Virus record (IMG/VR): IMGVR_UViG_3300049027_000140
Location: 1 to 64,000 of that record
Source: a virus
Reading direction: 5' to 3' (one strand)
Length of the DNA stretch: 64,000 nt
The position numbers and the translations under genes are program-made. The notes beneath the pieces were generated by a model. It was not told where the DNA came from. It saw only the letters and a program-made list of their open reading frames with translations, and did no database searches. Below are positions 56,852 through 63,917 of this stretch, in pieces (positions within the stretch are counted from its first letter, which is position 1; each line of letters starts with the position of its first letter).

Positions 56852-57871
56852 CTACACCGCCCTCTCGTGGACCTTGAAGCTGCCCGGCTCCGCGGCGCGC
56901 GCGCCTGTCGTGACGACGGTGTACTCGTACACGCCGGCGCCGCGCTCCTCGGTGATCTCGACCTGCACGTCGAACGTCCCCTCCCCGGTACGGATCACGG
57001 CATCGCCATCCCCGCTGGTGGGCGCGACCCCATAGACCAGATCGAAGCTATCCCCGAGCGGGGTGCGCACGCTGACGGTGAGCGACGACGGGTCGACGAA
57101 CTCGCCGGCGCGTGTGCGGACGGTGATGCCGGGAATGACGGCGGTGTCGCCGATGTGGAGTCTGGCCATGGGCCTCGTCAGGGTGATCGTGTGGGTGGAG
57201 GCGACCGCGGGCAGCGCGAGCTCGTAGAGGGCGCCTGCGCGCGGCAGCGTGAGAAAGGCGGGCTCGTCGTCTTCGCCGGAGGTGACCAGCGAGCCGGTCG
57301 CGTCGGCGGTGAGCGCCGGGAGCGCGGCGGAGCCGGTGCCGACGAAGCGGAGCGCGCCCGTCGCCGCGGCGACCATGGCTGGCAGCGAGACGGCCGCCGT
57401 GCCGGCGAAGACCAGCGTGATGGTTCCGGCGCCCGCGGCGGCGATACCCGGGAGCGCGGCCGCTCCGGTCCCGGCGAAGCCCAGTGCGCCGGCGGCGTCG
57501 CTCTCCAGCACGCCCAGAGCGACCGCGGCGGCGCCGAGGAAGACCTGCAGGCCGTCGCCATCGGCGGCGGGCGCCGGCAGGGCAGCGGCCCCGGTACCGG
57601 AAAACCCCAGCGCCCCGTCCCCCTCGCTGGCGACCGTCGGGAGCTCCACATCGGCCGTGCCGGCGAAGGTCTGGCTCCCCTCGCCCGCGGCCCCCAGCGC
57701 AGGCAGCGCCACGGCCGCGACGCCCACGAAGACCAGCTGGCCGACGCCGGCGGCGGTCAGGGTCGGGAGCTCAGCCTCGGCCGCGCCATCGACCGGCGGC
57801 GGCGCATCGCCGAGCGGCAGGTCGAGCGGCCCCGCGCCGGGACCGCGGAGAGCGATGTCGAGCGCGGCCAT
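56852..57871 (-). CDS. virion-associated protein: ~21-aa Gly/Ala repeats plus C-terminal BppU-like Ig-type domain
   Basis: repeats GxxxFxGxxxxxLPxxxxxGx (~7 copies); IGDT...VDPSSLTVSVRTP...G.F...G.YEY. Confidence 0.65.
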   Translation of the reverse strand: MAALDIALRGPGAGPLDLPLGDAPPPVDGAAEAELPTLTAAGVGQLVFVGVAAVALPALGAAGEGSQTFAGTADVELPTVASEGDGALGFSGTGAAALPAPAADGDGLQVFLGAAAVALGVLESDAAGALGFAGTGAAALPGIAAAGAGTITLVFAGTAAVSLPAMVAAATGALRFVGTGSAALPALTADATGSLVTSGEDDEPAFLTLPRAGALYELALPAVASTHTITLTRPMARLHIGDTAVIPGITVRTRAGEFVDPSSLTVSVRTPLGDSFDLVYGVAPTSGDGDAVIRTGEGTFDVQVEITEERGAGVYEYTVVTTGARAAEPGSFKVHERAV

Positions 57872-60623: not shown

Positions 60624-61337
60624 TCAGCCCGGGAACGAGCGGTAGACGCCCGTCATCCGGTGGGCGTACTGGTCCGGCGTTTCGGTGAACCACACGAGTT
60701 CGCCGAGCTTGAGCGCGGCGTCGTATGGGCGGCCTGCGTCGAAGAGGGGCAGCGCGTCCTCGTAGGTCTTCGACATCACGCGCCAGTAGTCCGCCGAGCC
60801 GGCCTGCGGCGTCCCGTGCGCGCGAAACAGCATGTCGCGCCACTCCCACCGATCCGGGTTCTGCTCGATGCGCTCCTGGACGCGGATGACGTACACCGAG
60901 CCCTGCCAGCGGAAGCCAGTGATGTTGCCGAAGTTGTTGCAGTAGACGTGTTGCCCGCGGCCGTTCTCGAGCGCCACGTGGGCCCAGGCGACGGCGAGGC
61001 GCGACCGTGTCGGCTGCGCACCGAAGACCGCTTCGTGGCCCCGGGCGAGAGCGTTGGCGAGGCCGACCTCGGAGAGCGGCGTATGCACCTTCTCGACACG
61101 GCGGCGCTCGGCCTGCGGCGGCGTCGCCTCGTCGGCGAGCTCGGCTCGGGTCTGCGGCCCGACGATGCCGTCGGCGTGGAGGCCGCGGGCTGCCTGGAAG
61201 GCGCGCGCGGCGGCCTCGGTCTTGCGGCCGAAGATGCCGTCGCTCGGACCAGGGTCGTGCCCGCGGGCGCGGAGGAGGTCCTGGACGGCGGCGACGTCCG
61301 CGCCGGAGGAGTCACGGCGAAGGATGCGCGGCCTCAC
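60624..61337 (-). CDS. endolysin: PG-binding domain + glucosaminidase/lysozyme-like domain
   Basis: DVAAVQDLL...DGIFGRKTEAA.RAFQ...L.ADGIVGPQT; ALENG...NNFGNI...FRAH. Confidence 0.8.
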   Translation of the reverse strand: MRPRILRRDSSGADVAAVQDLLRARGHDPGPSDGIFGRKTEAAARAFQAARGLHADGIVGPQTRAELADEATPPQAERRRVEKVHTPLSEVGLANALARGHEAVFGAQPTRSRLAVAWAHVALENGRGQHVYCNNFGNITGFRWQGSVYVIRVQERIEQNPDRWEWRDMLFRAHGTPQAGSADYWRVMSKTYEDALPLFDAGRPYDAALKLGELVWFTETPDQYAHRMTGVYRSFPG

Positions 61338-62170
61338 GCGGCCCCCTTCTGCCGCAGCGCGCAGTTCGGCGGGCACGTCCGGTGGCACGCTCCCGCGGGC
61401 GCGCCCTCCTTCTCGGCCAACCGGTGGCGAGCCTTCTCGAGCGCCCCGTTGAGGCGCGTGCGGTCCGCCTCCACCGTGTCGATCGCGTAGAGCAGATCCC
61501 GGAACTCGGCCTCGTGGTGCTCGTGCGGGACCTCGAGACGAGCCTGGATCACACGGGCCCACGTCTCCCCGTCGTGTGTCGCGTGCAGGTGCGCGGTCAG
61601 CGCGAGGACGACGGACTCGAGCGCGGCTACCTCGCGAGAGACACGGCGGGTCAATGCGTCGAAGCTGCGACCCCCGCGCTTGAACGAGATGGCCGCCGGG
61701 AAGAAGTCCCGGATGTCGCGCTCGGGAATCCGCGTAGCCCTGACCGTCGGCGTGCGGCCGGGTCCCGTGCGGACGAGACCGAACATCGCCTCGATCTCCC
61801 ACAGCCCGAAGTCCTCGGTGTGCGAGATGCACACCCGATCGAAGCGCTCGGTGAAGCGCGCGGCCTCCTGAAGACCCGTTGCGATCTTGACCACCGCGTC
61901 GCCCAGAAACCGCCACTCCCTGAACTGGGCCATGTACTGGCCAGGCACCTCGCCGTCGTAGAGGTCGTGGCTGATCTGGACGAGTTCAGCCCGATCCCCC
62001 TCTGTGGCAGCGATCATGATGGCACGCCGCCCGGGGTGCTCGATGCGCCAGAAGGCGGCGCGAACGAGGATCTCCCGCTTCCGACGGCTGCGCTCGCCTT
62101 CGAGCATGAGGCATTCCTCGTCCCCCTCCACGAAGCGCGCCTCGAAGCTCTCGAGCGTGGCGTCGGTCAT
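61334..62170 (-). CDS. degenerate terminase large-subunit ATPase-like domain with unrelated C-terminus
   Basis: colinear with TerL N-terminal ATPase (see findings) but Walker A = EGERSRRKR and Walker B = CISHTEDF. Confidence 0.6.
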   Translation of the reverse strand: MTDATLESFEARFVEGDEECLMLEGERSRRKREILVRAAFWRIEHPGRRAIMIAATEGDRAELVQISHDLYDGEVPGQYMAQFREWRFLGDAVVKIATGLQEAARFTERFDRVCISHTEDFGLWEIEAMFGLVRTGPGRTPTVRATRIPERDIRDFFPAAISFKRGGRSFDALTRRVSREVAALESVVLALTAHLHATHDGETWARVIQARLEVPHEHHEAEFRDLLYAIDTVEADRTRLNGALEKARHRLAEKEGAPAGACHRTCPPNCALRQKGAA

Positions 62171-63585
62171 CCGTCGAGCCATCCAGCGCCGCGGAATTTC
62201 GGGTCCCGGAGATCACGATCCATCTCGGCCACGCGGTCACCCTTCGCTCCGCTGTTGCCCTCGACCGTTTTGACCTTCGTGCCGCTGACGGTCCGGCGCT
62301 TGATGCCGACGTGGCCGCGCCAATCGTCGCGCGTCGTGCGGTCCCAGAATATGAGCATCCCGTCGCGGAGTTTGAGCGGGTCCTTGAGCAGATCGTCGGC
62401 GTCGATGAAGCGCCCGGCGCGCCGGAACTGCGCCTCGAGCGTCTTCGCGCCCGCGCTCCCGATGACGGGCGCCACGGTACCAATCGCCTCTGCCGCGTCG
62501 AGGATCCACGAACTCGCCGTGACGGAGCACCAGTCAGCAGGCGGCTCGATGTCGAAGCGGCGGAGATATTGCCCGATGCGCTCGCCGTCGTTGGGCCGCT
62601 CCTCGCAGACGCCGGCCTCGAGGTCGGCCACGGCGCGCGCGAGCGCGGCGGCCGCGAGTCCATCGGGCGGCGCCGCCGGCTGCGGCCGAGGCCGCACCAT
62701 CTCCGCGGCGGCCCGCGTCTTCGGCCCGACCACACCGTCGGCCTTGAGGTGTGCGTCGCCCTGGAACTCCTTCGTGGCGCGCTCGACCAGCGGCCCGAAC
62801 GCGCCATCAGGCGCGCCGGGGTCGTAGCCCAGGGCGATCAGGCGCTCCTGCCAGGCGAGAACGTCGGGCCCCTTCGCGCCGCGCTTGAGCGCCCGCGGCG
62901 GCTCGCGCTCGGTCGAGGGTGGCTCCGGCGTGTCGCGGCTCTCGGTCGGCGCTGCGCCCCCGCTCGCCATGGCGTCCGCCGCGAACGTGGGCCCCCACCC
63001 ATCGCGCGCGGCGACGTGCTCGGCCTTGTCGTCTGTCGCGACGTTGTGCGCGCGCACGAGAAAGCGCCCGCCCTGCCCACCGGCGAGCTTCAGGACCTCC
63101 TCGGCGACCTTCGTCGTGCTCGCTACGTTGCCGTAGGTCCGGACGTCCGTGTGCCCGATCCAGAGCGTCGAGCGCCCCGCCTTCGCCTCACGCGCCCAGT
63201 CGACCAGCCACTGCACGCCCGCGTCGCTCGCGGTGTTGTCGCGGTCCAGCGTCGTGTGCCCGCCGTCGAGCAGCACGAGGCCGGCGAGCTCGGCGCGGTC
63301 GGCCGGCCGCATGGCGCGTGCGAGGGCGTAGGAGCCCGACCAGCAGACGAGCCACGTCGAGGCGTAGCCCTGCCGCGGCGGCTTGTACTTCGCGAGAAGG
63401 CCGGGTAGCACGCGGCCGTTCTGGAGGCAGGCGTGGGCCAGCGCGTCGTAGGCGGCGCTCATGCCGGCGTACGGCGAGCGGATCGGCACGACGTCCACGT
63501 CGAGACCACGAGCCGCGGCGGCAGCGCCGAACATGGGCGCGACGTCCGGCGTGGCGTGCGCGAGGAGGATGAGGTGGTGGCTCAC
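62167..63585 (-). CDS. modular lysin: alpha/beta-hydrolase + PG-binding + CHAP domain
   Basis: LVCWSGSY nucleophile elbow, LVLLDGGH; DVLAWQERL...DGAFGP...ADGVVGPKT; DWCS...GHVGI...TVEGNS. Confidence 0.8.
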   Translation of the reverse strand: MSHHLILLAHATPDVAPMFGAAAAARGLDVDVVPIRSPYAGMSAAYDALAHACLQNGRVLPGLLAKYKPPRQGYASTWLVCWSGSYALARAMRPADRAELAGLVLLDGGHTTLDRDNTASDAGVQWLVDWAREAKAGRSTLWIGHTDVRTYGNVASTTKVAEEVLKLAGGQGGRFLVRAHNVATDDKAEHVAARDGWGPTFAADAMASGGAAPTESRDTPEPPSTEREPPRALKRGAKGPDVLAWQERLIALGYDPGAPDGAFGPLVERATKEFQGDAHLKADGVVGPKTRAAAEMVRPRPQPAAPPDGLAAAALARAVADLEAGVCEERPNDGERIGQYLRRFDIEPPADWCSVTASSWILDAAEAIGTVAPVIGSAGAKTLEAQFRRAGRFIDADDLLKDPLKLRDGMLIFWDRTTRDDWRGHVGIKRRTVSGTKVKTVEGNSGAKGDRVAEMDRDLRDPKFRGAGWLDG

Positions 63586-63917
63586 GGGGTGGCTCTTGGC
63601 GGCGGGATGGTCAGCGCGTCCGGCTCGGTCGGGTCGGGGTCCGGCGGCTCCTCGCCACGCAGGGCGGTGCCAGGGAGCGGCCGCGAGGGAGCGCTCGCTC
63701 CCGGCGTAGCTCGGCTGAGCCGCTCGTCGATGCCGGCGTGGCCCCGCGCCGTGATGTCGGCGTCGGCGCGCTTGGGGAAGTTGTCCGTCCTGCGCGGCGT
63801 GGGCGTGGCCGGTTTCGGGGTCGGCTTGGCGGCCACGCGGTTCACGAGGAAGGCGCCGATCGCGGCGACAGCGACCTCGGCGAGGAGCGTGCCCAGTTTG
63901 TCCCAGGGGAACTTCAC
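63582..63917 (-). CDS. single-TM protein upstream of lysin (holin/lysis accessory candidate)
   Basis: N-terminal TM, Pro-rich tail; GTGA coupling to lysin. Confidence 0.55.
   Translation of the reverse strand: MKFPWDKLGTLLAEVAVAAIGAFLVNRVAAKPTPKPATPTPRRTDNFPKRADADITARGHAGIDERLSRATPGASAPSRPLPGTALRGEEPPDPDPTEPDALTIPPPRATP

Follow-up and report, generated by a model that had tools for sequence, protein, structure and literature searches.

A terminase ATPase look-alike lacking the catalytic residues lies in the lysis cassette of a Sorangium phage

The DNA analyzed here, referred to as the window, covers the first 64 kb (64,000 nucleotides) of one virus record that is 98,115 bp long and has a GC content of 71% (IMG/VR record IMGVR_UViG_3300049027_000140), and the source virus is a Sorangium phage. 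On the minus strand of the window, between two lysin genes, lies a gene for a 278-amino acid (aa) protein, P0002, that resembles the ATPase domain found in the large terminase subunit (TerL) and lacks the residues required for catalysis. A first-pass annotation, made from the letters of the sequence, had pointed out such a look-alike in the lysis cassette, and our analysis confirms that observation. It had also described the open reading frame (ORF) as intact and translationally coupled on both sides in the late/lysis block, and this is what was found: the start codon of the P0002 gene and the stop codon of the gene for lysin A (472 aa) share an ATGA overlap at 62167-62170, and its stop codon and the GTG start of the gene for lysin B (237 aa) share a GTGA overlap at 61334-61337. 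An alternative ATG for P0002 is present at 62182, four codons 5' of the assigned start. The GC content at third codon positions is 0.88, which is typical for real genes of a 71% GC genome.

When P0002 and its homologs were aligned with TerL proteins, each of the three catalytic motifs was found to be altered. The Walker A sequence GGAAGGGK[TS] of TerL is GERSRRKR in P0002. Across the family G25 and K31 are invariant, all 12 members lack the Ser/Thr that binds Mg, and eight of the 12, among them P0002 with an Arg at this position, have lost the second P-loop Gly. The Walker B motif and the block that follows it, FDELTHF in TerL, read ISHTEDF in P0002, where VCISH aligns with IGFDE of TerL. The catalytic Glu is lost in every one of the 12 members (His in 11 and Arg in one) and the Walker B Asp, which is present in about half of the members, is Ser in P0002. 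In motif III, R[SA]T[ST]NPGG of TerL corresponds to RATRIPER, with loss of the Asn, and R144 and T146 are invariant. The loss of catalytic residues that had been claimed at first reading is seen in the alignment, with GERSRRKR at Walker A, SH in place of DE at Walker B and the catalytic Glu, and IP in place of NP at motif III, and these sequences strongly suggest that P0002 is catalytically dead.

The fold of P0002 was examined with an AlphaFold2 (AF2) model built from 12 homologs, which has a predicted local distance difference test (pLDDT) score of 80.8 and in which the elements follow one another in the TerL order, beginning with beta1, a loop, a helix, and beta2. When this model was compared by VIA-align with 48,161 PDB chains, ranks 1-6 were all terminases (P74-26, D6E, Sf6, PhiV-1, T4, and HK97), with Z scores of 14.1-15.4 and root-mean-square deviations (rmsd) of 2.8-3.3 Å over 161-173 residues, and helicases ranked below them with Z scores of 13.5 or less. 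The complex of Avs3 with a terminase (PDB 8dgc), at a Z score of 14.6, was also one of the best matches by structure. Terminases dominated the Foldseek search of BFVD with the same model, down to an E value of 4e-9, and the neighbours of P0002 in the ESM Atlas carry Terminase_6N. The top Foldseek matches in the PDB were F1-ATPase subunits, but these had an rmsd of about 17 Å and were taken as an artefact of a P-loop domain with a helical domain behind it, whereas the compact PDB matches, at an rmsd of 3-5 Å, were terminases.

By sequence, P0002 itself had no match in Pfam, the family profile had none among PDB sequences, and in BLASTP neither the TerL of the phage nor a 231-aa paralog of that TerL, described below, was significantly similar to P0002. 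The homology of P0002 to TerL is visible only through the divergent members of its family, the family profile, and the structure. Five of the 12 family members match phrog_979, annotated as terminase large subunit, the best at 9.5e-8. With the family profile, ORFs of 500-680 aa are matched at about 1e-11 in the genomes of three other Polyangiales, and in the two of these TerL ORFs that were checked Pfam identified both Terminase_6N and Terminase_6C. The most divergent member, P0013, matches one Terminase_6N TerL by BLASTP at 2e-11, with 33% identity over 141 aa. In a joint alignment with Terminase_6N TerLs the colinear motif blocks on which the first-pass annotation had based its terminase assignment were recovered, with W.FPSGA of TerL aligned to WRFLGDA of P0002, and most of the remaining conserved positions of the TerL core were kept, among them L23, G25, K31, L35, Y79, W86, F88, G91-A92, F121, R134, G138, R144, and T146. 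The structural search, the BFVD matches, the PHROG profile, and the matches to real TerLs are four independent lines that agree on a terminase ATPase.

The part of P0002 that follows the ATPase-like domain does not resemble a nuclease. In the models everything beyond residue 179 (179-278) is helical, and neither Terminase_6C nor any other Pfam domain was detected, in agreement with the earlier statement that the nuclease domain is absent. Modelled alone, the C-terminal part has a pLDDT of 85; its best structural matches are generic four-helix bundles with Z scores of 8.3 or less, and it has no match in BFVD. The longest invariant stretch of the family, ARHRLAE, lies in the four-helix bundle. 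The tail with three Cys and one His, judged from its sequence, is a probable metal site. In eight of 10 pairwise comparisons, including all of those among Sorangium-type loci, the C-terminal domain is less diverged than the N-terminal domain, and the bundle and the tail are the most conserved part of the protein, and probably its main interaction surface. We consider it almost certain that P0002 is a pseudoenzyme, an exapted ATPase domain of the Terminase_6N lineage in which the residues for Mg-ATP binding and hydrolysis are gone and the nuclease half has given way to a four-helix bundle and a Cys3-His tail.

Homologs of P0002 number 12, at 34-86% identity, all with an intact reading frame, and 45 residues are invariant across the family. 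The family is tiny: clustering at 90% identity gives nine clusters in a set of 5.8 billion proteins, and a set of 1.8 billion contains three representative clusters. Its members come from Sorangium chromosomes, a few metagenome and virus contigs, and one metagenome-assembled genome (MAG, G003). A tblastn search of 50,697 GenBank phage records with P0002, a set in which the presence of T4 is unconfirmed, gave no match, the contigs that encode P0012 and P0013 were not found in the metagenome and viral scans, and hidden Markov models of PADLOC-DB did not match P0002, P0010, P0012, P0013, or the 231-aa paralog at E values up to 0.1. Among the three close loci, namely, the window, So ce388, and an IMG/VR contig, the ratio of nonsynonymous to synonymous substitution rates (dN/dS) of P0002 was 0.16-0.21. 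The ratios of its neighbours were higher: 0.25-0.40 for lysin A, 0.25-0.38 for lysin B, 0.33-0.55 for p122, and 0.27-0.43 for p648. These ratios are from three close pairs; distant pairs (51% identity or less) are unreliable and were dropped because their synonymous sites are saturated, the proportion of synonymous differences (pS) being about 0.5. P0002 is under purifying selection and is not decaying, and such slow evolution is unlike the fast change expected at a host-virus interface. In the MAG, the copies lie on the short contigs C139, C110, C133, and C143 (L005, L020, L021, and L022), each near a conserved, Cys-rich protein of 240-280 aa with the motif ARHESGF, and the element looks repeated, with the assembly breaking there. 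The ARHESGF protein was considered as a lytic transglycosylase, but it had no match in Pfam or the PDB and no similarity to the lysins of the window, and the assignment was dropped.

The phage encodes a separate, intact TerL of 544 aa at genome positions 92275-93909 on the minus strand (L002:12275-13909). This TerL is recognised by PHROGs only (phrog_2 at 1.4e-30 and also phrog_5902) and has no match in Pfam or among PDB sequences. Directly downstream of the portal gene, at genome positions 89590-90285 on the minus strand (L002:9590-10285), there is in addition an ATPase-only TerL paralog of 231 aa, which is 32% identical to residues 35-285 of the TerL of the phage (E 6e-33). Its Walker A is SGHKTGMT, in which Met replaces Lys, and its Walker B is VVDNA, in which Asn replaces Glu; a 227-aa homolog that is 62% identical to it has both changes. 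Neither the So ce388 nor the So ce134 prophage was found to have the paralog. Those two prophages and the window phage all have a Mu-type portal, and the prophages have Terminase_6N-type TerLs that are encoded 41 and 35 kb, respectively, upstream of the P0002 homolog. A different type of TerL beside the same portal family suggests an exchange of the packaging enzyme among phages that are syntenic in other respects. The family profile did not match the TerLs of So ce388 and So ce134 at an E value of 1e-3, and hhalign gave an E value of 0.0018. Other Polyangiales TerLs, in contrast, are reached at about 1e-11, and none of the resident TerLs is a recent source of P0002. P0002 and the 231-aa paralog are thus two independently derived dead TerL copies, one foreign and the other cognate. 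Moreover, P0002 is retained under differing types of resident TerL, from which it follows that its function is independent of any one TerL type.

Table 1. Features of the P0002 gene and of the adjoining lysis genes (positions in the window)
Feature	Position	Strand	Evidence
Pseudo-terminase gene P0002, 278 aa	61334..62170	-	ORF, overlaps with both neighbours, 12 homologs, dN/dS
N-terminal domain, residues 1-172, TerL-type additional strand catalytic glutamate (ASCE) ATPase fold, Terminase_6N lineage	61655..62170	-	Structure and sequence matches
Degenerate Walker A GERSRRKR, residues 25-32	62075..62098	-	Family alignment
Walker B-equivalent strand RVCISH, residues 112-117	61820..61837	-	Family alignment
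Motif III-equivalent strand TVRATRIP, residues 142-149	61724..61747	-	Family alignment
Four-helix bundle, residues 179-254, in the place of the nuclease	61409..61636	-	AF2 models
Cys/His tail C262-H263-x2-C266-x3-C270	61361..61387	-	Invariant in 12 of 12 sequences
Lysin A, 472 aa: N-domain without family, PG_binding_1, CHAP-like C-domain	62167..63585	-	PG_binding_1 2.4e-16; phrog_1493, phrog_2649, phrog_9589
Lysin B, 237 aa: PG_binding_1 and weak glucosaminidase-like C-domain	60624..61337	-	PG_binding_1 3.5e-17; phrog_1493, phrog_3513
111-aa protein, hydrophobic, probably membrane-spanning N-terminal stretch	63582..63917	-	Judged by sequence; 4-nt overlap with lysin A start

The genes around P0002 are those of a lysis cassette (Table 1), and the PHROGs listed there for lysins A and B are endolysin families. 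The 111-aa protein has no family match and, going by its sequence, is a candidate lysis protein of the holin or spanin type, and a 141-aa ORF that likewise lies upstream has a weak Rz-like spanin match. Downstream of lysin B comes p122, a virion structural protein (phrog_3758, 2.2e-23), which is followed by three large unannotated ORFs. P0002 has no match to a Pfam or PHROG lysis family and, in the model, no peptidoglycan-binding or hydrolase domain and no membrane segment, and gene position is all that ties it to lysis. So ce388 and the IMG/VR contig share with the window the gene order lysin A, P0002, lysin B, p122, p101, p648, p339, and So ce134 has the same order without lysin B. The P0002 homolog of So ce134 is 51% identical, and although the N-domain of the lysin is different there, the homolog lies directly behind the lysin with the ATGA overlap kept. 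Full-length lysin A was found in one of 201 genomes and is as rare as the P0002 gene, because of which a comparison with elements that have lysin A and no P0002 is uninformative. Neither promoter-like nor terminator-like sites were seen within 56-64 kb, which is weak evidence for the role proposed below.

Two other features of this region were recorded. Residues 1-210 of lysin A (62956-63585, minus strand) belong to no Pfam family and contain a CWSGSY sequence that is reminiscent of the nucleophile elbow of hydrolases. A stand-alone 232-aa homolog of this N-domain, with 39% identity, is encoded in another Polyangiales genome (G134), and the So ce134 lysin lacks the domain, which looks like a mobile module. 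Further downstream, at 56852-57871 on the minus strand, p339 is an Ala/Gly-rich protein of 339 aa built from F.GTGAAALPA-like repeats, each about 20 aa long. It comes after p648, a 648-aa protein without a known family; both are conserved downstream of the lysis genes in Sorangium prophages, possibly as proteins of fibres or of capsid decoration.

Having lost its catalytic residues, P0002 must act by binding, and we tentatively propose that it does so as a non-catalytic subunit of the late programme of the phage itself. It would be expressed last in the block of late genes and, because its start overlaps the stop of lysin A, it would probably be translated in a fixed ratio with lysin A. Its partner would be a conserved phage or cell component, which may be lysin A, the Mu-type portal or packaging complex, or else DNA or another polyanion, which the retained Lys/Arg cluster would hold. 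We do not rank the endolysin, the portal/packaging complex, and DNA among themselves with any confidence. A conserved partner in the late programme is favoured because P0002 evolves slowly, because it keeps a fixed and coupled place behind the endolysin in the Sorangium elements, and because it is retained under any type of TerL; a fast-changing immune sensor of the host is a less likely partner. Several points weigh against this proposal. To our knowledge, there is no precedent for a terminase fold that acts in lysis. The family is represented in the 8.8-Mb MAG by two or more full-length copies and by two C-terminal fragments at contig ends, none of which adjoins a lysin: one copy is behind a gene for an XRE-type helix-turn-helix protein, and on one contig a GH25 lysozyme cassette lies at a distance of about 3 kb. 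Not every member is therefore coupled to an endolysin, and the conservation of gene order among the phages can mirror modular inheritance and not function. Finally, the Walker A Lys is invariant and the four deepest-branching members have a canonical GxxxxGK, which makes residual nucleotide binding conceivable.

That last point bears on the question whether P0002 could be a nucleotide-gated regulator that binds a nucleotide without hydrolysis, or hydrolyzes it in an unusual way through E119/D120. G25 and K31 are invariant, the GxxxxGK of the four deepest-branching members is also found in the copy on contig C110 of the MAG, one member weakly matches AAA_16/AAA_25 (3e-4), and residue 119 is acidic in 11 of 12 members. 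However, not one member has the Ser/Thr that coordinates Mg, the Arg that stands for the second P-loop Gly in the Sorangium clade is expected to occupy the phosphate site, only about half of the members have the Walker B Asp, and none has the catalytic Glu, and we regard such a switch as quite unlikely. Least probable is that P0002 is a functionless relic, the decaying remains of a captured terminase gene. The loss of the catalytic motifs and the small size of the family, with its three representative clusters among 1.8 billion, would fit a relic, but all 12 members, the most distant at 34% identity, have an intact frame, 45 residues are invariant, the dN/dS of 0.16-0.21 is below that of the neighbours, and a new, confidently folded C-terminal domain has been added. 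A dead terminase subunit might instead act as a poison of competing phages or satellites, entering or blocking the terminase ring, TerS (the small terminase subunit), or the portal of co-infecting elements of the Terminase_6N type. The N-terminal domain is indeed nearer to the TerLs of other Polyangiales prophages (about 1e-11) than to those of its carriers, and when ATPase-dead gp17 was doped into the T4 motor, DNA engagement, speed, and success were lowered (PMC8589836). The same work shows that the T4 motor tolerates an inactive subunit (PMC8589836). A late place in the lysis cassette is odd for an exclusion function, and P0002 has neither the nuclease nor the C-terminal arm that is the docking part in many terminases. 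Furthermore, the prophages of So ce388 and So ce134 use Terminase_6N-type TerLs themselves, and these carriers would need to avoid poisoning their own motors. We regard motor poisoning as improbable and about as likely as the next alternative.

That alternative, the one at the centre of the first-pass annotation, is that P0002 is an immune decoy. Avs sensors are activated by ligand binding. P0002 would fill the pocket of the terminase sensors (Avs1-3, Upx) and, having no terminase-bound ATP, would not trigger them, so that the real TerL would be shielded. The fold of P0002 is the one that terminase sensors read, as the match to the Avs3-terminase complex (8dgc, Z 14.6) illustrates, the phage has two independent dead mimics, and the ATPase domain by itself suffices for recognition by Upx homologues. 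EcAvs2 seals its interface with a bridging ATP that touches the terminase-bound ATP (PMC13601566), and an ATP-free mimic might therefore bind without activating; stand-alone TerL-like proteins have been suggested as possible anti-defence proteins (PMC13601566). On the other hand, the small terminase-like proteins that have been examined, Ksap1 and Ksap2 (PMC11564622) and T4 vs.8 (PMC13601566), trigger Avs2 and do not inhibit it. Upx is in most cases still activated by terminases with Asp-to-Ala changes in Walker B or in the nuclease, and Avs2 too was assayed with these mutants (PMC13601566). P0002 also evolves more slowly than its neighbours, unlike an arms-race gene, and it has no PADLOC match and no anti-defence neighbour. 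Its gene is about 32 kb downstream of that of TerL in the same leftward late block, and if this block is read from the TerL end then P0002 is probably made no earlier than the TerL that it would mask. A terminase decoy was not described in the literature searched. The decoy reading is thus not supported and the available evidence leans against it; we consider it unlikely. The same low likelihood is given to a combined form, in which the two dead look-alikes, the copy of the TerL of the phage itself and the foreign Terminase_6N capture, jointly block Avs1-3 and Upx by occupying the sensors without an ATP-loaded active site. If true, it would mark the first case of a natural inhibitor that acts on a bacterial pattern-recognition receptor through ligand mimicry.

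It remains to place P0002 among what is known. With the TerLs of Polyangiales prophages (Terminase_6N/6C; L015 and L016) and of phages of known structure (4zni, P74-26; 5oe8, D6E; 4idh, Sf6 gp2; 2o0h, T4 gp17; 6z6d, HK97) it shares the ATPase fold, the order of secondary-structure elements, the colinear motifs, and the core residues. It differs from them in having no Ser/Thr and no second Gly in Walker A, no Walker B Asp, no catalytic Glu, and no motif III Asn, in carrying a helical bundle and a Cys3-His tail where TerL has an RNase H-like nuclease, and in being encoded in a lysis cassette and not beside the portal or TerS. The closest described counterparts are small, nuclease-less, terminase-ATPase-like phage proteins that are encoded besides a real TerL. 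T4 vs.8 is a stand-alone homolog of the TerL ATPase with intact Walker A and B motifs and it activates EcAvs2 (PMC13601566); Ksap2 has weak similarity to the ATPase domain of the D6E terminase, and both Ksap1 and Ksap2 activate Avs2 (PMC11564622). Unlike vs.8, which keeps its Walker motifs, P0002 has lost both and has an extra C-terminal domain, and it differs from vs.8 and Ksap1/Ksap2 in coming from another TerL lineage and another host phylum. The 231-aa paralog is like P0002 an ATPase-only terminase copy with no nuclease and with inactivated Walker motifs that is kept by selection, but it is a copy of the resident TerL without an added domain, whereas P0002 is of foreign lineage, has a new C-terminal domain, and lies between lysins. 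The earlier claim that no example had been described therefore does not hold for the general class, since stand-alone look-alikes of the TerL ATPase have been published, vs.8 being an ATPase-only look-alike encoded besides a real TerL, but it does hold for a look-alike that is catalytically dead and encoded within a lysis cassette. What is new in the present case is the loss of all the catalytic motifs together with the addition of a helical Cys3-His domain, the place in the lysis cassette, the foreign TerL lineage, and the presence of a second, cognate dead copy.

These results describe a terminase ATPase fold that has been reused as a binding module. The role of stand-alone TerL-like proteins has been left as an open question by the authors who described vs.8 (PMC13601566); P0002 is a clean example at one extreme of this group. 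Being a small soluble protein, it can be tested directly against Avs2, Avs3, and Upx and against late proteins of the phage.

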